A DNA stretch of 64,000 nt, taken from positions 1,184,001-1,248,000 of the forward strand of contig OZ250153.1 of NCBI GenBank assembly GCA_965237805.1. Direction: 5' to 3'. The position numbers were made by a program, and so were the translations under genes. Source of the stretch: Gammaproteobacteria bacterium (GTDB lineage Bacteria > Pseudomonadota > Gammaproteobacteria > JABABF01). Below are positions 19,514 through 29,493 of this stretch, one piece after another. The notes beneath the pieces are model-generated. The model was not told the DNA's origin and made no database searches. It was given only the letters and a program-made list of their open reading frames with translations. Numbering within the stretch: the stretch's first letter is position 1; every line of letters starts with the position of its first letter.

Positions 19514-20569
19514 TTAGGCTGATCCGTAGCGCTTCCTCCAATAGCGCATCAAGCGGTTTAGTAGCCGAATTGGTAGTGTTTTAATTGGTACTATTCCAAG
19601 ATGTACCCACCACCACTTCAGTATCATCATGCGTCCCGCCCATGTTTGGGTGATCGGTGGGGGGGTGCCCCGGTCTATGCGCTCCACGATTTGATCTATG
19701 CGCTCTAATATCGCTTCAGGAGAATGCTCATAAGAAAACAATTTGGAGTCTGGCAATACGGCTGGCTGTTCAGTGTATTGGCGGTAGAGTTCAGGGTTGC
19801 CCTCCACCTCCATGACATGGTCAATCACGGCATCCAGATCGTCGTAGTCATGGCAGTTGATAAAGCGTGCCGGGTTGAAATACTCGCTGATTCGCGTGCT
19901 GCCGTAGTAAATTGGGATACTGCCGGCCATCAATGCTTGCGGCAATTTTTCCGCCATGAAAAAAGGAGCACTTATGGTTTCAAAACATATGCTGAATCGG
20001 TAGTGTTTTAAAAATTCCATTTTGTTATTAAAATCAGGACAATTGGGATCATCTGGTGATGGCATATTGTTCAGTACTTGGCCGGGAGAATCGACATGTT
20101 TTCGCGCCGTCAGCGCACGGAAAAAATTGGCGCGCAATTCGGCTGTGCTAACCCCCTGATTTCTATGAAAGAAATTGCAGAAGCGGTCTTTGGGATGAGC
20201 AGTCAATTCATCGCAATAACTAGACTCTCCGCGCAACCATGCCGGAAAAGGCTCGTCCCACACATATTTCCAGTAGTGGAGGTGTGTAGCATCCGTAGGC
20301 TCGGGGCTAACAGCATAGTCACATAAAAACCCGCGGTTGCGATACCACAGCGGATGTTCAACTCCTAACCAACACTTGATGCAATCGTAGCGCGAATGCT
20401 TCCGTCCCCAGCTATCTGAACAAAACAGCAGTTCAGGTTCTTGGCTATGCTCCAAGTCGTATTTCGTGCTGAGGACATCAAAAAATCCCTTATGTAATAC
20501 CGCTGGCGCATCTTTGGCTTCGTGAGGCCAGAAGTCTGTCAAGGCAATTTTCAGTTTTCGTTTCGTCAT
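19514..20569 (-). CDS. Glycosyltransferase family 10 (alpha-1,3/4-fucosyltransferase-like), copy E
   Basis: K.RFCNF, R..FF, VDSPG..LNN, K.EF.K.YRFSICFE.....EK, AGSIPIYYG and FNP.RFIN.HD match H. pylori FutA-type GT10 motifs. Confidence 0.88.
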   Translation of the reverse strand: MTKRKLKIALTDFWPHEAKDAPAVLHKGFFDVLSTKYDLEHSQEPELLFCSDSWGRKHSRYDCIKCWLGVEHPLWYRNRGFLCDYAVSPEPTDATHLHYWKYVWDEPFPAWLRGESSYCDELTAHPKDRFCNFFHRNQGVSTAELRANFFRALTARKHVDSPGQVLNNMPSPDDPNCPDFNNKMEFLKHYRFSICFETISAPFFMAEKLPQALMAGSIPIYYGSTRISEYFNPARFINCHDYDDLDAVIDHVMEVEGNPELYRQYTEQPAVLPDSKLFSYEHSPEAILERIDQIVERIDRGTPPPITQTWAGRMMILKWWWVHLGIVPIKTLPIRLLNRLMRYWRKRYGSA

Positions 20570-20756
20570 GATATTAGCGATCTTTTTGCCACAGCATTGG
20601 ATGGTTTTGGCAATGATCAGATCTGAGGGGGTTCAATCTCCTGATCCACCCCCACTGGATTTGCACTCTTTGCACTCGTGGCTGAGTACTTGCCAGTATA
20701 CTCAATTAGTGTGATGTTGACAGCAGGATGATTGCTGCTCGCAACGCGTCGCCTCC

Positions 20757-21818
20757 TTAGGCTGATCCGTAGCGCTTCCTCCAATAGCGCATAAAGCGGT
20801 TTAGTAGCCGCATTGGTAGTGTTCTAATTGGTTTTCTTCTAAGATATCCCCACCACCACCTCAGTATCATCATGCGTCCCGCCCATGTTTGGGTGATCGG
20901 TGGGGGGGTACCCCGGTCTATGCGCTCTACGATTTGATCTATGCGCTCTAATATCGCTTCAGGAGAATGCTCATAAGAAAACAATTTGGAATCTGGCAAT
21001 ACGGCTGGCTGTTCAGTGTATTGGCGGTAGAGTTCAGGGTTATCCTCCACCTCCATGACATGGTCAATCACGGCATCTAGATCGTCGTAGTCATGGCAGT
21101 TGATAAAGCGTGCCGGGTTGAAATATTCACTGATTCTCGTACTGCCGTAGTAAATTGGGATACTGCCGACCATCAATGCTTGCGGCAATTTTTCTCCCGT
21201 GTAAAAAGGAGCGCTTATGGTATCAAAACATATGCTGAATCGGTAGTGCTTTATAAATTCCATTTTGTTCTTCCAATGGAAACAATTATGATAATCTAGT
21301 GGTGGCATATTGTTTAGTAATCTGCCGGGAGAATCGACATGTTTTCGCGCCGTCAGCGCACGGAAAAAATTGGCGCGTAATTTGGCTGTGGTAACCCCCG
21401 GCATTTTCTGACAGAAATTGCAGAAGCGGTCTTTGGGATGAGCAGTCAATTCATCGCAATAACTAGACTCCCCGCGCAACCATGCCGGGAAAGGCTCGTC
21501 CCACACATGTTTCCAGTAGTGGAGGTGTGTAGCATCCGTAGGCTCGGGGCTAAAAGCATAGTCACATAAAAAGCCGTGATTTCGGTAAACACCCGGGGAT
21601 TCCCATCCCAACCAACACTTGATGCAATTGTAGTGCTGGTGTTCCATGAGGTATACGGAGTGATCTGAACAAAACAGCAGTTCAGGTTCTTGGCTGCGCT
21701 CCAAGTCGTATTTCGTGCTGAGGACATCAAAAAATCCCTTATGTAATACCGCTGGCGCATCTTGGGCTTCGTGAGGCCAGAAGTCTGTCAAGGCAATTTT
21801 GAGTTTTCTTTTGGCCAT
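20757..21818 (-). CDS. Glycosyltransferase family 10, copy D
   Basis: Paralog with the same GT10 motifs. Confidence 0.88.
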   Translation of the reverse strand: MAKRKLKIALTDFWPHEAQDAPAVLHKGFFDVLSTKYDLERSQEPELLFCSDHSVYLMEHQHYNCIKCWLGWESPGVYRNHGFLCDYAFSPEPTDATHLHYWKHVWDEPFPAWLRGESSYCDELTAHPKDRFCNFCQKMPGVTTAKLRANFFRALTARKHVDSPGRLLNNMPPLDYHNCFHWKNKMEFIKHYRFSICFDTISAPFYTGEKLPQALMVGSIPIYYGSTRISEYFNPARFINCHDYDDLDAVIDHVMEVEDNPELYRQYTEQPAVLPDSKLFSYEHSPEAILERIDQIVERIDRGTPPPITQTWAGRMMILRWWWGYLRRKPIRTLPMRLLNRFMRYWRKRYGSA

Positions 21819-22012
21819 GATATTGGGGATCTTTTCGCCACAGCATTGGGCGGTTTTGGCAATGATCAGATCTGAGGGGGTTCAATCTCCTGATCTACTC
21901 CCACTGGATTTGCACTCTTTGCACTCGTGGCTGAACGCCTGCCAGTGTACTACAATTAGAGTGACGTTGATCAGCAGGATGATCGCTGCCCGCAATGTGT
22001 CACCCCTTAGGC

Positions 22013-23056
22013 TTAGCAGTAGTGCTTCCTCCAATAGCGCATACAGCGGCTTGGTAGTGTTCTAATTGGTTCTCTTCTAAGATATCCCCACCACCACTTC
22101 AGTATCATCATGCGTCCCGCCCATGTTTGGGTGATCGGTGGGGGGGTGCCCCGGTCTATGCGCTCTACGATTTGATCTATGCGATCTAATATCGCTTCAG
22201 GAGAATGCTCATAAGAAAACAATTTGGAATCTGGCAATACGGCTGGCTGTTCAGTGTATTGGCGGTAGAGTTCAGGGTTATCCTCCACCTCCATGACATG
22301 GTCAATCACGGCATCTAGATCGTCGTAGTCATGGCAGTTGATAAAGCGTGCCGGGTTGAAATACTCGCTGATTCGCGTACTGCCGTAGTAAATTGGGATA
22401 CTGCCGACCATCAATGCTTGCGGCAATTTTTCTCCCGTGTAAAAAGGAGCGCTTATGGTATCAAAACATATGCTGAATCGGTAGTGCTTTATAAATTCCA
22501 TTTTGTTCTTCCAATTGACAGAATTATAATTATCTAGTGGTGGCATATTGTTTAGTAATCTGCCGGGAGAATCGACATGTTTTCGCGCCGTCAGCGCACG
22601 GAAAAAATTGGCGCGTAATTTGGCTGTGCTAACCCCCGGCATTTTCTGACAGAAATTGCAGAAGCGGTCTTTGGGATGAGCAGTCAATTCATCGCAATAA
22701 CTAGACTCCCCGCGCAACCATGCCGGGAAAGGCTCGTCCCACACAAATTTCCAGTAGTGGAGGTGTGTAGCATCAGTAGGCTCGGGGCTAACAGCATAGT
22801 CACATAAATATCCGTGATTTCGGTAAACACCCGGAGATTCACAGCCCAACCAACACTTAATGCAATTGTATCTCTTGTGATCCATTTGGTACACGGAGCT
22901 ATCTGAACAAAACAGTAGTTCTGGTTCTTGGCTATGCTCCAAGTCGTATTTCGTGCTGAGGACATCAAAAAATCCCTTGTGGAATACCGCCGGCGCATCT
23001 TGGGCTTCGTGATGCCAGAAGTCTGTCAAGGCAATTTTCAGTTTTCGTTTCGTCAT
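22013..23056 (-). CDS. Glycosyltransferase family 10, copy C
   Basis: Paralog with the same GT10 motifs. Confidence 0.88.
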   Translation of the reverse strand: MTKRKLKIALTDFWHHEAQDAPAVFHKGFFDVLSTKYDLEHSQEPELLFCSDSSVYQMDHKRYNCIKCWLGCESPGVYRNHGYLCDYAVSPEPTDATHLHYWKFVWDEPFPAWLRGESSYCDELTAHPKDRFCNFCQKMPGVSTAKLRANFFRALTARKHVDSPGRLLNNMPPLDNYNSVNWKNKMEFIKHYRFSICFDTISAPFYTGEKLPQALMVGSIPIYYGSTRISEYFNPARFINCHDYDDLDAVIDHVMEVEDNPELYRQYTEQPAVLPDSKLFSYEHSPEAILDRIDQIVERIDRGTPPPITQTWAGRMMILKWWWGYLRREPIRTLPSRCMRYWRKHYC

Positions 23057-23249
23057 GATATTAGCGATCTTTTCGACACAGCATTGGGCGGTTTTGGCAA
23101 TGATCTAATCTGAGGGAGCTCAGTCCCCCGACCCGCCCTCACTGGATTTTCACTTTTTGCATTCGTGGCTGAGTCCTTGCCAGTATACCCAATGAGTGTG
23201 ATGTTGACCAGCAGGATGATTGCTGCTCGCAACGTGTCACCCCTTAGGC

Positions 23250-24284
23250 TTAGCAGTAGCGATTTCTCCAATAGTGTATACAGCGCTTTAGTAGCCGAAT
23301 TGGTAGTGTTTTAAAATATCCCCACCACCACTTCAGTATCATCATGCGTCCCGCCCATGTTTGGGTGATCGGTGGGGGGATGCCCCGGTCTATGCGCTCT
23401 ACGATTTGATCTATGCGCTCTAATATCGCTTCAGGAGAATGCTCATAAGAAAACAATTTAGAGTCTGGCAATACGGCTGGCTGTTCAGTGTATTGGCGGT
23501 AGAGTTCAGGGTTGCCCTCCACCTCCATGACATGGTCAATCACGGCATCTAGATCGTCGTAGTCATGGCAGTTGATAATGCGTGCCGGGTTGAAATATTC
23601 ACTGATTTGCGTACAGCCGTAGTAAATTGGGATACTGCCGGCCATCAATGCTTGCGGCAATTTTTCTGCTATGAAAAAAGGAGCGCTTATGGTTTCAAAA
23701 CATATGCTGAATCGGTAGTGCTTTAAAAATTCCATTTTGTTATTCAAATCGGGACAATTGGGATCATCTGGTGATGGCATATTGTTTAGTATTTTGCCGG
23801 GAGAATCGACATGTTTTCGCGCCGTCAGCGTGCGGAAAAAATTAGCGCGCAGTTTGGGTGTGTAATATCCCACGCTGGACTGAAAGAAATTGCAGAAGCG
23901 GTCTTTGGGATGAGCAGTCAATTCATCGCAATAACTAGACTCTCCGCGCAACCATGCCGGGAAAGGCTCGTCCCACACATATCTCCAGTAGTGGAGGTGT
24001 GTAGCATCAGTAGGCTCGGGGCTAAAAGCATAGTCACATAAAAATCCGTAGTTGCGATACGACAGCGGGGGTTCAGCTCCCAACCAACACTTGATGCAAT
24101 CGTAGCGCCAATGCTTCCGGCGAATGGCATCTGAACAAAATAGCAGTTCAGGTTCTTGGCTATGCTCCAAGTCATATTTCGTGCTGAGGACATCAAAAAA
24201 TCCCTTGTGTAATACCACTGGCGCATCTTTGGCTTCGTGAGGCCAGAAGTCTGTCAAGGCAATTTTGAGTTTTCTTTTAGCCAT
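23250..24284 (-). CDS. Glycosyltransferase family 10, copy B
   Basis: Paralog with the same GT10 motifs. Confidence 0.88.
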   Translation of the reverse strand: MAKRKLKIALTDFWPHEAKDAPVVLHKGFFDVLSTKYDLEHSQEPELLFCSDAIRRKHWRYDCIKCWLGAEPPLSYRNYGFLCDYAFSPEPTDATHLHYWRYVWDEPFPAWLRGESSYCDELTAHPKDRFCNFFQSSVGYYTPKLRANFFRTLTARKHVDSPGKILNNMPSPDDPNCPDLNNKMEFLKHYRFSICFETISAPFFIAEKLPQALMAGSIPIYYGCTQISEYFNPARIINCHDYDDLDAVIDHVMEVEGNPELYRQYTEQPAVLPDSKLFSYEHSPEAILERIDQIVERIDRGIPPPITQTWAGRMMILKWWWGYFKTLPIRLLKRCIHYWRNRYC

Positions 24285-24472
24285 GATATTGGTGATCTTT
24301 TCGCCACAGCATTGGGCGGTTTTGGCAATGATCAGATCTGAGGGGGTTCAATCTCCAGATCTGTCCCCACTGGATTTGCACTCTTTGCACTCGTGGCGAG
24401 TACTTGCCAGTGTACTGCTATTGGTGTGATGTTGACCAGTAGGATGATTGCTGCTCGCAACGTGTCGCCTCC

Positions 24473-25534
24473 TTAGGCTGATCCGTAGCGCTTCCTCCAA
24501 TAGCGCATACAGCGGTTTAGTAGCCGAATTGGTAGTTTTCTAATTGGTTTAAAATATCCCCACCACCACTTCAGTATCATCATGCGTCCCGCCCATGTTT
24601 GGGTGATCGGTGGGGGGGTGCCCCGGTCTATGCGCTCTACGATTTGGTCTATGCGCTCTAATATCGCTTCAGGAGAATGCTCATAAGAAAACAATTTAGA
24701 GTCTGGCAATACGGCTGGCTGTTCAGTGTATTGGCGGTAGAGTTCAGGGTTATCCTCCACCTCCATGACATGGTCAATCACGGCATCTAGATCGTCGTAG
24801 TCATGGCAGTTGATAATGCGTGCCGGGTTGAAATATTGACTGATTTGCGTACAGCCGTAGTAAATTGGGATACTGCCGACCATCAATGCTTGCGGCAATT
24901 TTTCTGCCATGAAAAAAGGAGCGCTTATGGTTTCAAAACATATGCTGAATCGGTAGTGCTTTATAAATTCCATTTTGTTCTTCCAATCAGGACAATTGGG
25001 GTCATCTGGTGATGGCATATTGTTCAGTATTCTGCCGGGCGAATCGACATGTTTTCGCGCTGTCAGCGCACGGAAAAAATTGGCGCGCAATTTGGCTGTG
25101 GTAGACCCCGGATGTCCCTGAAAGAAATTGCAGAAACGGTCTTTGGGATGAGCAGTCAATTCATCGCAATAACTAGACTCCCCGCGCAACCATGCCGGGA
25201 AAGGCTCGTCCCATACATATTTCCAGTAGTGGTAGTGGAGGTGTGTGGCATCCGTAGGCTCGGGGCTAAAAGCATAGTCACATAAAAATCCGTAGTTGAG
25301 ATACGACAGCGGGGGTTCAACTCCCAACCAACACTTGATGCAATTGTAGCTCTGGTGTTCCATGAGTATTACGGAGTGATCTGAACAAAACAGCAGTTCA
25401 GGTTCTTGGCTATGTTCCAAGTCGTATTTTGTGCTAAGGACATCAAAAAATCCCTTATGTAATGCTATCGGCGCATCTTTGGCTTTGTGAGGCCAGAAGT
25501 CTGTCAAGGCAATTTTGAGTTTTCGTTTCGTCAT
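24473..25534 (-). CDS. Glycosyltransferase family 10, copy A
   Basis: Paralog with the same GT10 motifs. Confidence 0.88.
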   Translation of the reverse strand: MTKRKLKIALTDFWPHKAKDAPIALHKGFFDVLSTKYDLEHSQEPELLFCSDHSVILMEHQSYNCIKCWLGVEPPLSYLNYGFLCDYAFSPEPTDATHLHYHYWKYVWDEPFPAWLRGESSYCDELTAHPKDRFCNFFQGHPGSTTAKLRANFFRALTARKHVDSPGRILNNMPSPDDPNCPDWKNKMEFIKHYRFSICFETISAPFFMAEKLPQALMVGSIPIYYGCTQISQYFNPARIINCHDYDDLDAVIDHVMEVEDNPELYRQYTEQPAVLPDSKLFSYEHSPEAILERIDQIVERIDRGTPPPITQTWAGRMMILKWWWGYFKPIRKLPIRLLNRCMRYWRKRYGSA

Positions 25535-26017: not shown

Positions 26018-26189
26018 GGCGATGCCTCTATATGGCCTGACGATAGACTTTAGTACGATCTTTTCTGCTGCAGCTGTCATCTGGTTGACCAAGAGCTGGT
26101 GGTGACCATGCGGCGTACTATATGCGGGTGATGTGGGGGCAAGTTGGTCATCTTGAGATGCGGTGCTGCGTTGGTGTCGGAAGCTGCGC

Positions 26190-26828
26190 ATGAGTGGTGT
26201 GCGAGAGCTCGTATTGGCCAGCGGCAACGCTGGCAAGCTGCGTGAGCTGGGTGCTCTGCTCGAACCGTTGGGTTGGCAGCTGGTGCCCCAAGCGGAGCTC
26301 GGGGTGGCACTTGTCGAGGAGACGGGCGTTGATTTCGAAGCCAATGCGCTCATCAAGGCGCGTCACGCGGCGTGTGTCACCGGCCTGCCTGCGCTGGCCG
26401 ACGATTCTGGTCTGGAGGTGGCGGCATTGGATGGTGCGCCGGGGGTGCGTTCGGCGCGCTATGCTGGTGGGTGCGCAGATGCTGCGGCCAATAACCGCAA
26501 ATTGTTGGCTGCGCTAGATGGCCTGCCACCAGCGCGGCGCGGGGCCTGTTTCCGCTGTGCCATCGCCTTGGTGCGCAGCGCCGACGATGCCCAGCCCCTG
26601 CTCGCCCAAGGGCGCTGGGACGGTCGCATCCTAGAGCGGCCACAGGGTGGGGGTGGCTTTGGCTATGATCCGCTGTTCGCGCCCGTCGGTGAGCTGTGCA
26701 GTGCCGCCGAGCTACCCTTTGAGCAAAAACAGCGGCGCAGCCATCGCGGCCAAGCACTGCGTGCGCTGTTGGCGCAGCTCCGCGCCGAGTACGGTGGGCG
26801 CGCCGAGGTGGCGGGTCTCGACACATGA
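26190..26828 (+). CDS. rdgB: dITP/XTP pyrophosphatase
   Basis: LASGNAGK, ADDSGL, GAPGVRSARY, GFGYDPLF and SHRG motifs. Confidence 0.96.
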   Translation: MSGVRELVLASGNAGKLRELGALLEPLGWQLVPQAELGVALVEETGVDFEANALIKARHAACVTGLPALADDSGLEVAALDGAPGVRSARYAGGCADAAANNRKLLAALDGLPPARRGACFRCAIALVRSADDAQPLLAQGRWDGRILERPQGGGGFGYDPLFAPVGELCSAAELPFEQKQRRSHRGQALRALLAQLRAEYGGRAEVAGLDT

Positions 26829-27988
26829 GCGCCACGCTGTTTCCGGCACCACAGCCCATAGCGCCGCCGCCGCTGTCCTTGTATGTCCATATTCCTTGGT
26901 GTGAATCCAAATGTCCGTACTGTGATTTCAACTCCCACACCATGGGCGGTGCGCTACCGGAGGACGACTATGTGGCGGCACTGCTCGCCGACCTAGAGGA
27001 GCAATTGCCCCGTGTGGCCGGGCGTTCACTGTGCTCGGTATTCATCGGTGGCGGTACGCCGAGTCTTTTCTCCGCCCACGCCATTGGTGCCCTGCTTGAG
27101 GGCATTGCACGGTGCCTGCCTTTCGCGCCGGAGTTGGAAATTACGCTGGAGGCCAATCCGGCCAGTGCCGAACAGCGGCGCTTCGCCGACTTCCGCGCAG
27201 CTGGTGTCAACCGCTTGTCCTTAGGTATTCAGAGCTTGGACGATACCGCGCTGGCGGCGTTGGGACGACGCCACGATGCCGCGCAGGCACGTGCGGCGGT
27301 GGCTGCCGCCAGTGCGGCCGGTTTCCAGCGGCTGAACTTGGATCTGATGCACGGCCTGCCGGGCCAGTCAGCCAGCGCTGCCCTCGATTCGCTACGCGAG
27401 GCGTTGGCGATGGCGACCGAGCACCTCTCTTGGTACCAGTTGACGCTGGAGCCCGGCACACCATTCCATCGCCGCCCGCCACCGCTACCCGGTGACGATG
27501 AGATCGCCGCTGTGCAAGAGCGGGGGGAGGCGCTGTTGGTTGCTGCCGGTTTGCTGCGCTACGAGATATCCGCTTTTGCCAGACCCGGTGGCGAAGCGCG
27601 CCATAATCTCAATTATTGGCACTTCGGTGACTACCTCGGTATCGGTGCTGGCGCACACGGCAAGCATTCTGACAGCGGCTTTGTGCGCCGTAGCGAAAGG
27701 CCGCCCCGCCCCGCCGATTATCTGCGCCGCCAAGCGGGTCGCGAGTGGGTGCCGCCCGCCGCCGAGTTGCCGCTGGAATACCTGATGAATGCACTGCGTC
27801 TGAGCGGCGGTGTACCCGCCGCTCAGTTCGCCGAGCGCACTGGCCTGCCCGTGGCCTGCATCGCCTCGTCGCTAGCTCAAGCGCGCGACGATGGCCTACT
27901 CGACCCAGACCCACAGCGCTTGGCTCCCACCGCCTTCGGCCAGAGCCATCTCAACGAGCTGTTGAGTCGCTTCCTACCGCTAGAATAG
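26825..27988 (+). CDS. hemW: Radical SAM heme chaperone HemW
   Basis: [33 protein letters not shown] and [20 protein letters not shown] motifs. Confidence 0.94.
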
Positions 27989-27995
27989 ACAAATT

Positions 27996-28069
27996 GCGCC
28001 CGTAGCTCAGTTGGATAGAGTGTCGGCCTCCGAAGCCGAAGGTCACAGGTTCGAATCCTGTCGGGCGCG
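27996..28069 (+). tRNA. tRNA-Arg(CCG)
   Basis: Cloverleaf: acceptor GCGCCCG/CGGGCGC, D arm GCTC/GAGT, anticodon arm TCGGC-CTCCGAA-GCCGA, T arm ACAGG-TTCGAAT-CCTGT. CCA is not encoded. Confidence 0.96.
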
Positions 28070-28572
28070 TTGGGAGTAGGGAGCGCAGCTCAGTTGGATA
28101 GAGTGTCGGCCTCCGCAGCCGAAGGTCACAGCTTCGAATCCTGTCGGGCGCGTTGGGAGTAGAGAGCGCAGCATCAGTTGGATAGAGTGTCGGCCCCCGC
28201 AGCCGAAGGTCCCAGCTTCGAATCCTGTCGGGCGCGTTGGGAGTAGGGAGCGCAGCATCAGTTGGATAGAGTGTCGGCCTCCGCAGCCGAAGGTCCCAGC
28301 TTCGAATCCTGTCGGGCGCGTTGGGAGTAGAGAGCGCAGCATCAGTTGGATAGAGTGTCGGCCTCCGCAGCCGAAGGTCCCAGCTTCGAATCCTGTCGGG
28401 CGCGTTGGGAGTAGAGAGCGCAGCATCAGTTGGATAGAGTGTTGGCCTCCGCAGCCGAAGGTCCCAGCTTCGAATCCTGTCGGGCGCGTTGGGAGTAGGG
28501 AGCGCAGCATCAGTTGGATAGAGTGTCGGCCTCCGCAGCCGAAGGTCGCAGCTTCGAATCCTGTCGGGCGCG
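28070..28572 (+). repeat. Six tandem tRNA-derived repeats (83, then 5 x 84 bp)
   Basis: Units start at 28070, 28153, 28237, 28321, 28405 and 28489. Each is TTGGGAGTAGRGAGCGC followed by tRNA positions 9-73 with shared substitutions. Confidence 0.96.
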
Positions 28573-28605
28573 TTGGATCGACTAAGCGCAGCTGACAGTA
28601 GGGTC

Positions 28606-29493
28606 TCAGGGGTGCGTCAGTGCTTGGAAGTCCCCGATCATGTGTTTGAGGCCAACCATCAACGGGGTTTGTGCACGCCAATCGAGCAGTTCCAGTGCGC
28701 GCGATGGGTCGCCGTAGAAGTGCGAAGCATCGAAGCTGCGTTGTGGGGCCTCGACGGCCTTTGCCTTGGAATTGGTCAACTCGATTGCCATATCGGCCAA
28801 GTATCCCAGTGTGGTCGGTACGCCGGTCACCAGCTGGATGGGCGGTGGCAGATCGCCACCATCAAGCAAGTCGACCAGCGTGATCAAGCCTTGTGTCACA
28901 TCGTCGATATACACGAAGTCGAAAGTATGGCCTGCACCCTCGATCTGCAAGTTTGCGCCCTGCAATGCTGCGCACACAAAAGCTGGTACCACGCGGTCAG
29001 GGTGATCCGCCACGCTGCCGTAGACATTGGACAGCCGAATCACTGCCGTGCGCAGGCCAGCTGCGCACGCTTCTTGCGCCAAGTGTTCGCCAGCCACTTT
29101 GCTGTGGCCGTAGACATTGATGGGCCGCAAAGGCGTATCCTCGGTGACGGGCATCTTGTCGGGCTGTCCGTAGACTTCTCGGCTACTCGCGATAATCGCC
29201 CAAGAGCAACTGGTCGCCGCCTGCGCCGCCTGCAGCACATTGCGGGTGCCTTCGACATTAGTCGTGTGGCACTCTTCAGGTCGTTGTTCGCCCCATACCA
29301 CCCTTGAGACCGCACCCAAATGCACCACGCCACGGCAAGCTGCGATGGCGTCTGCCACCGCCGCACGATCGCATATATCATCGCCCTCGCTGAGATCAAA
29401 GGCGCGCACTTCCACGTTGCGCTTGCCCAGCTGCTGGCTCAGCGCGGCGCCGATCAGCCCCCTTGCGCCGGTGATGAGAATCGGGTTACTCAA
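28606..29493 (-). CDS. NAD-dependent nucleotide-sugar epimerase/dehydratase
   Basis: [27 protein letters not shown] and RLSNVYG motifs. Confidence 0.9.

Follow-up and report, generated by a model that had tools for sequence, protein, structure and literature searches.

Six tandem partial copies behind the tRNA-Arg(CCG) gene of a gammaproteobacterium, probably a recent microhomology-mediated duplication

A tRNA-Arg(CCG) gene followed by six partial copies of itself

We have analyzed a window of 64,000 nucleotides (the whole stretch under study, G000:C1:1184001-1248000, that is contig OZ250153.1 of assembly GCA_965237805.1) from a gammaproteobacterium. Here the gene for tRNA-Arg(CCG) is directly followed, on the same strand, by six tandem copies of most of its own body. 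Coordinates of the array are window positions throughout. The genome is a single contig of 1,725,584 bp with 61.6% G+C, 41 tRNA genes and one tmRNA. ARAGORN places tRNA-Arg(CCG) at 27995-28070, as the sole tRNA of the window, and among the 41 tRNA genes it is the only one with a CCG anticodon. It carries no encoded CCA, and the same applies to several other tRNAs of this genome by a crude check of their tails.

Tandem Repeats Finder (TRF) reported one array here, at 28007-28576, with a period of 84, 6.8 copies, 97% matches, no indels and a score of 1063. In the assembly it consists of six head-to-tail units of 83-84 bp (28070-28572), after which comes a partial unit of 21 nt. Each unit is made of a 13-nt spacer (TTGGGAGTAGGGA or TTGGGAGTAGAGA), the tetranucleotide GCGC and tRNA positions 9-73, with 65 of the 74 tRNA nucleotides kept. 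Unit-by-unit alignment showed positions 54-73 to be those of the tRNA in all six; the anticodon stem is fully paired and the CCG anticodon present in every one of them. The substitutions are few and largely shared. A37C and G53C appear in all units, units 2-6 have an A inserted behind C11, position 49 has changed to C in units 2-5 and to G in unit 6, U33C is confined to unit 2, and C28U, which retains a U-G pair, to unit 5. The spacer has one match elsewhere in the genome, with 3 mismatches, at genome position 648716, and a reading of it as a dispersed repeat was rejected.

The array of one tRNA-Arg(CCG) gene and six mimics described in the initial annotation is thus real in the assembly by TRF, ARAGORN, Rfam and alignment. 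Every lesion listed there for A37, G53, the D-stem A, A49C/G, U33C and C28T was recovered by the alignment, and the degenerate spacer said to close the array is TTGGATCGACTAAGCGCAGCT, at 28573-28593. That annotation had also described a U8 to C change and a spacer of 17 nt. Both hold if GCGC is read as spacer; Infernal instead aligned GCGC with positions 1-4 and deleted positions 5-8. Under either alignment the 5' acceptor strand is incomplete and at most four pairs are possible.

The units are not functional tRNAs. In none of the six is the 7-bp acceptor stem complete, the 5' strand being truncated: in the Infernal alignment positions 5-8 are deleted and three acceptor pairs are left, marked as non-standard, and by alignment the same holds for all six. 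The G53-C61 pair, a purine at position 37 and an intact D stem are near-invariant features of tRNAs. The first two were lost in the six units, the D stem is bulged in five and position 49 is changed in five. ARAGORN called none of the six as a tRNA. In Rfam, where the gathering score of RF00005 is 29 bits and matches were reported to E<=10, unit 1 is the most tRNA-like and the lone copy above the threshold (scores in Table 1), and units 2 and 5 had no match at all. The tRNA folded better than its shuffled versions and the two full units that we folded, 1 and 2, did not; the anticodon hairpin was the sole tRNA element that recurred in them. The proposal that the copies cannot be charged is therefore borne out as far as normal, chargeable tRNAs are concerned, given the missing positions 5-8, the T stem weakened by G53C and A49C/G, the bulged D stem, the absence of ARAGORN calls and the low Rfam scores. 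The tRNA callers had been expected to return one real gene and six pseudogenes. The one real gene was returned by ARAGORN and by Rfam alike; of the copies, unit 1 passes the Rfam threshold and units 2 and 5 go unreported. Unit 1 is in this sense an annotation trap, scoring above the tRNA threshold despite the missing acceptor positions 5-8.

We also considered the assembly itself. The array sequence is present in two runs (X1 and X2) from one sample of one study. A short-read contig of 105 nt from X1 (28012-28116) crosses the junction between the tRNA and unit 1 with zero mismatches, and other short contigs match variants internal to the units. The X1 contig is not independent support because the sample may be the source of the genome. 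The Logan contigs of the two runs end at 28032 and start again at 28549, with breaks inside the array as expected for a repeat; none spans it and parts are uncovered. Runs X3 and X4 contributed no contigs. That the assembler erred in the copy number, or in the whole array, is nevertheless highly improbable: the bridged junction and the matches to internal variants speak against it, as do the consistent, distinct single differences between units and the recovery of the genome as one 1.73-Mb contig, even if the sequence is known from one sample only.

Table 1. Features at the tRNA-Arg(CCG) locus (window positions), long tandem repeats of the same genome (genome positions) and repeats at tRNA-Arg(CCG) of relatives
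Feature	Position	Strand	Remarks
rdgB-like Ham1 gene	26163-26828		
hemW/yggW-type radical-SAM HemN-like gene	26825-27988	+	Pfam Radical_SAM 4.3e-22, HemN_C 3.1e-09; stop 7 nt before tRNA
TAGAAT, -10-like box	27981-27986	+	9 nt before tRNA 5' end; read from sequence; possible tRNA promoter
Functional tRNA-Arg(CCG), 74 nt	27996-28069	+	ARAGORN; Rfam RF00005 73.2 bits; cloverleaf -30.5 kcal/mol, z -2.35
Unit 1, 83 nt	28070-28152	+	Spacer TTGGGAGTAGGGA, GCGC, A37C, G53C; 35.5 bits; z +1.61
Unit 2, 84 nt	28153-28236	+	Spacer variant GAG, extra A after C11, U33C, A37C, A49C, G53C; z +1.39
Unit 3, 84 nt	28237-28320	+	Extra A, A37C, A49C, G53C; Rfam tRNA 13.8 bits
Unit 4, 84 nt	28321-28404	+	Spacer variant GAG, extra A, A37C, A49C, G53C; 13.8 bits
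Unit 5, 84 nt	28405-28488	+	Spacer variant GAG, extra A, C28U, A37C, A49C, G53C; no Rfam tRNA match at E<=10
Unit 6, 84 nt	28489-28572	+	Extra A, A37C, A49G, G53C; Rfam tRNA 21.2 bits
Terminal partial unit TTGGATCGACTAAGCGCAGCT	28573-28593	+	TTGG, different 9-nt block, GCGCAGCT
NAD-dependent epimerase/dehydratase, convergent	28606-29493	-	Pfam Epimerase 1.8e-42; stop 33 nt past last full unit
Tandem repeat, 141 bp x9.5	genome 319705-321038		
Tandem repeat, 282 bp x74	genome 1598132-1618917		~20 kb
Tandem repeat, 26 bp x16.3	genome 1669957-1670379		
Tandem repeat, 126 bp x15.4	genome 1695563-1697506		
Tandem repeat, 126 bp x12	genome 1698522-1700027		
Relative G038 (L024/L114)			121 bp x3.1 behind tRNA-Arg(CCG), with tRNA 3' end
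Relative G055 (L026)			Three extra copies of the last 20-22 nt of tRNA-Arg(CCG)
Relative G014 (L013/L119)			Two copies of tRNA-Arg(CCG) 3' end
Relative G019 (L028)			One copy of tRNA-Arg(CCG) 3' end
Relative G029 (L006)			201 bp x2.1 preceding tRNA-Arg(CCG), with 5' 19 nt

Distribution and probable origin of the array

One genome of the species carrying the array is available, and a single other genome, G001, belongs to the same genus. In G001 the genes hemW (74% amino acid identity), tRNA-Arg(CCG) (99%) and epimerase (58%) lie in the same order, with about 55 nt between the tRNA and the epimerase gene and no array, trace of the spacer or extra copies. The flank downstream of the array gave no convincing alignment with this intergenic region. 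We extended the search to 60 relatives (a tally that includes the unpublished genome G043, used in that tally alone) and, among the matches listed, none extends into an array. Candidate arrays in G036 and G010, where the matches reached query position 108, turned out to be ordinary Pro-Arg(UCU)-His operons and were discarded. Exact-match pattern scans, from which records of the window's own genome were possibly excluded, gave no case of the 3' end of this tRNA followed by its D-loop within 8-38 nt in either genome_contigs or metagenome_contigs, and no match in metagenome_contigs to a genus-level pattern of the hemW-tRNA junction. In phage and plasmid collections we found just ordinary tRNA-Arg genes, at most 88% identical to the unit. 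A search based on hemW retrieved 80 loci, the best at 59% identity and one with tRNA-Arg(CCG) within 2.5 kb, and brought no closer relatives. The rest of the genome and the relatives had been proposed as places to look for the same architecture, and no comparable array was found in G001 or in the other collections searched. The array is apparently restricted, on present data, to one species. Full-text searching of the literature found no description of a bacterial tRNA gene that is followed by pseudo-tRNA copies of nearly full length in tandem.

The tetranucleotide AGCT is found at both ends of the repeated block, once in the tRNA itself (A9-G10-C11-U12) and once at the end of the array, which falls directly after GCGCAGCT of the terminal partial unit. 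Such a repeat on both sides is the signature of a duplication mediated by microhomology. The units are in strict register and 97% alike. Unit 1, which adjoins the gene, has a sequence between that of the tRNA and that of units 2-6. The best reading of the array is as a duplication at the DNA level and not as a designed set of RNA genes. We consider it likely that a recent, species-specific tandem duplication, mediated by microhomology, took in the larger part of the tRNA together with 17 nt of its flank and expanded to six decaying copies, which are probably a passive 3' trailer. A block of 83 bp, beginning at tRNA position 9 and extending 17 nt beyond the 3' end, would have been duplicated first by slippage or illegitimate recombination, with the AGCT at tRNA positions 9-12 and that in the downstream flank as substrates. 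The first copy would then have acquired A37C and G53C and a later copy the extra A and A49C, this last variant being the one that unequal crossing-over or slippage during replication amplified to six units, before single changes appeared in individual units. We infer this order of events; the copies are probably neutral.

The initial annotation had offered four explanations (decoys, a source of small RNAs, spare attB sites and neutral slippage products), and the last one is the only one to gain evidence, in the absence of the array from G001 and the collections, the short direct repeat that bounds the block and substitutions that are indistinguishable from random. If this duplication history is true, the array is likely to vary in copy number and to serve as a strain marker for this uncultured, small-genome gammaproteobacterial lineage. 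The six near-identical recombination partners adjoin the only tRNA-Arg(CCG) gene, a standing hazard to it.

A second tRNA of this genome has undergone a similar event, outside the window. The gene for tRNA-Thr(UGU) (genome 1370821-1370893, minus strand, L126) is followed by a duplication of 144 bp x2.0 with 98% matches (region G000:C1:1370583-1370893). The duplicate contains tRNA positions ~23 to 73 and 94 nt of flanking DNA, in which a convergent open reading frame (ORF) has its final codons, and is bounded by GGCAGA, present in the tRNA and in the flank. The tRNA-Thr and its flank gave a single match in G001, so this duplication is missing there.

Several observations weigh against a simple passive duplication. 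In the terminal partial unit TTGG and GCGCAGCT stand in exact register with the array spacers, but of the 9 nt that lie between them 7 are different. A simple duplication of the present flank does not account for this, and we have to assume a further event in the terminal unit, a small templated replacement; AGTAGGG, a 7-mer found in the array spacers, is present again shortly after the array, at 28595-28601. The two oldest substitutions strike purine 37 and G53. The anticodon stem is paired in all six units, with C28U compensated by wobble, and a selected mimic of the anticodon arm would show the same. Considering positions 33, 37 and 53 as near-invariant, within an assumed set of 13 such positions, substitutions at near-invariant positions make up 3 of 6 events over 65 positions (binomial P ~0.10, a test of low power with units so alike). 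A random pattern of substitutions had been named as an indicator of a neutral variable-number tandem repeat (VNTR), and by this test the pattern is not distinguishable from random. Selection for making the copies harmless is unneeded because they were already dead without the 5' acceptor strand. The hallmark of a VNTR is variation in copy number, and the comparison is between one genome of the array species and one of its sister species. None of the runs on record as RNA contains the stretch. Finally, the genome contains 23 tandem-repeat loci with a period of at least 40, two of them overlapping tRNAs against 0.88 expected (P 0.22 under a crude model, the expectation being inflated by one 20-kb repeat), so a tRNA "hot spot" is not demonstrated.

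Integration of mobile elements is the other process known to leave pieces of tRNA genes. Partial 3' copies in direct orientation are its usual scar, such partial genes can be miscalled as tRNA genes, and prokaryotic partial tRNA genes are otherwise ascribed to integration or to CRISPR spacers, as stated in PMC9897764. Neither origin fits the array. It is like attR fragments in being a non-functional 3' part of a tRNA, directly oriented, near the intact gene. Unlike them it has no element between the copies, no integrase nearby and a strict 84-bp tandem structure. An integrated element with its integrase would have to lie between the intact gene and a fragment, and the units abut, with identical spacers and no space for an element. 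Only two matches to the tyrosine recombinase family (PF00589) exist in the genome (327300-327809 and 1483894-1484400), both distant from the array at ~1212 kb. No phage or plasmid in the collections bears a close copy of the unit, and the surroundings are housekeeping genes. Williams is said to have reported in 2002 that integrases usually use two of the tRNA loops, those where positions 37 and 53 lie, and A37C and G53C would fall in precisely these. The suggestion that the copies are spare attB sites is weakened by the scarcity and distance of the recombinases, and we regard integration remnants or reserve attB sites at tRNA-Arg as a highly improbable origin.

Probable transcription of the array and tRNA-linked repeats elsewhere

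A scan of 27400-29000 gave no consensus promoters and no intrinsic terminators. The motif CTAGAAT (27981-27988 region) overlaps the stop codon of hemW and occupies the equivalent position ahead of the tRNA in G001 (L004) and in G031 (L005). It is probably the -10 box of a tRNA promoter. The tRNA would then have its own promoter, and transcription could continue into the array. Because no terminator was found between the two, transcription probably includes the array as a 3' trailer. The copies cannot mature into tRNA, since the 5' acceptor strand is missing and the D and T arms are weakened, and their RNA would be degraded as the trailer of the pre-tRNA-Arg.

No family except tRNA reaches its gathering score in an Rfam scan of 27500-29100, and there was no match up to E=10 to RtT, a family that Rfam presumably contains. 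A resemblance to Y RNA (YrlA, RF02553) across the tRNA/unit-1 junction, at 24.5 bits against a gathering score of 69, was rejected; the genome (97.4% complete) has no match to TROVE/Ro60 (PF05731), which also counts against YrlA. We rejected as well a protein-coding reading of the ORFs at 28043-28681 (minus strand) and 28573-29307 (plus strand), which match no Pfam family.

The closest known architecture is that of the tyrT/tyrV locus of Escherichia coli. In strain K-12 (L113, NC_000913.3 1285500-1288500) tyrV is followed by 178 bp x3.1 (95% matches), where every unit closes with the 3' terminal 19 of the 85 nt of tRNA-Tyr, and one further 19-nt copy lies between tyrT and tyrV. This agrees with the short 3' piece of tRNA mentioned for tyrT repeats in the initial annotation. 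The first repeat unit is annotated as the non-coding RNA rttR plus a small ORF, tpr. Both loci have tandem direct repeats on the strand of the tRNA that start at its 3' end, with a tRNA 3' segment in each unit (here the TRF array overlaps the tRNA), and in both the copies are few and of high identity. The amount of tRNA is what differs, 19 of 85 nt including CCA in E. coli versus 65 of 74 nt here, with the D, anticodon and T arms and a spacer of only 13-17 nt. There is no sequence similarity between the two repeats, and of the two only the E. coli repeat has a known processed RNA, by annotation. The E. coli 178-bp tyrV repeat contains an exact match of 8-9 nt to the T-arm of tRNA-Tyr (AGGTTCGA region; E 1.0-3.6, not significant alone), which hints that the tyrV units may be decayed longer copies of a tRNA.

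The array belongs with these tRNA-linked repeats and is plausibly their youngest stage. If so, it shows in a clean and young form how repeats of the tyrT/rttR type may start, with a nearly whole tRNA body duplicated through 4 nt of microhomology and copies that decay afterwards. Other comparisons are more distant. Tandem repeats with truncated tRNAs, common in animal mitochondrial genomes, are also head-to-tail units of partial tRNA and adjacent sequence, and are explained by replication slippage (slipped-strand mispairing); unlike the array, they are organellar, depend on another replication and usually lie beside the control region. Bacterial tRNA array units are dense runs of tRNA-like sequences too, but are described in PMC4758250 and PMC8421152 as at least 20 different complete tRNA genes, where here there is one gene with six truncated copies.

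We also surveyed partial tRNA copies on the same strand within 1.5 kb (41 tRNAs in 109 loci, with 29 tRNA-Arg(CCG) loci of relatives). Such copies were detected at 6 of the 29 tRNA-Arg(CCG) loci, or 5 after dropping L009, where a 13-nt internal match was 1.2 kb away, and no other tRNA was positive. The 3' side of tRNA-Arg(CCG) often gathers repeats similar to those of tyrT. The repeats of the relatives (Table 1) share with the array the tRNA species, the strand and a tRNA end carried along, but contain 16-22 nt of tRNA together with 100-250 nt of other sequence. The 3' copies in G038, G055, G014 and G019 include CCA where it is encoded. At the DNA level, homologues of the 121-bp G038 unit immediately follow tRNA-Arg(CCG) in G248 (L115), from the genus of G038, and in members of three other families (G204, L116/L123; G192, L117/L124; G014, L119); one in G038 itself (L125) adjoins tRNA-Pro(CGG). 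Matches at E<=1e-5 were found in 9 of 300 genomes of the class, G038 included. The unit belongs to no Rfam family and may be an undescribed small element, conserved or mobile, tied to tRNA-Arg(CCG). It is independent of the array, since the genome of the array has no match to it. These terminal repeats at 5 of 29 loci, some of them homologous across families, may merit separate attention.

The likeness to tyrV bears on whether the array could be a nascent small RNA of the rttR kind, co-transcribed with the tRNA and cut at the retained 3' acceptor/discriminator segments into regulatory RNAs of unit length. The shared architecture with its annotated rttR, the lack of a terminator behind the tRNA and the repeats with a terminal tRNA segment in relatives (four with the 3' end, one with the 5' end) are what could be expected from it. 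Yet no RNA family other than tRNA reached its gathering score and RtT had no match, units 1 and 2 fold no better than shuffles, and the sister species lacks the array. Moreover, RNase P and RNase Z would be expected to act poorly on an acceptor stem with four pairs or fewer. We find this reading clearly unlikely.

The intact anticodon arm raises a different question, whether the unchargeable units sequester a nuclease or modification enzyme that acts on the anticodon loop. All six preserve the stem and the CCG, unit 5 by a pair that C28U still forms, and the protection of a real tRNA encoded by a single gene could matter. In contrast, the very loop recognized by such enzymes is altered, by A37C in all units and by U33C in one, conservation is uninformative among units so similar, the array is absent from the sister species and from all collections searched, and no toxin or defence gene is found among the scanned neighbours, all of them housekeeping. 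That the units act as decoys is very improbable. A more general version would have the trailer of pre-tRNA-Arg(CCG) cut into RNAs of ~84 nt with an intact CCG stem-loop, neither matured nor charged, which act as a decoy or sponge for an anticodon-loop nuclease or an enzyme that binds tRNA-Arg, or as a newborn regulator similar to rttR. If true, this would be an array of tRNA mimics caught at birth in a 1.7-Mb genome with one gene for this tRNA; we judge it decidedly unlikely. No positive support emerged for the rttR-like, decoy or attB readings, and the passive trailer left by a DNA-level duplication is the one that we retain as likely.

Genes around the array and other repeats of the genome

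The genes scanned around the locus are housekeeping genes. On the opposite strand, with the convergent epimerase gene, are found those for phosphoglycerate kinase (pgk), GAPDH (gap) and transketolase. The genome is rich in long tandem repeats for its 1.73 Mb, and five of them are listed in Table 1. Upstream of the tRNA locus, the window contains a tandem gene family (19514-25534, minus strand), formed by five consecutive paralogous ORFs of 344-353 amino acids that each match glycosyltransferase family 10 (fucosyltransferase), four of which also match the FucT N-terminal domain.

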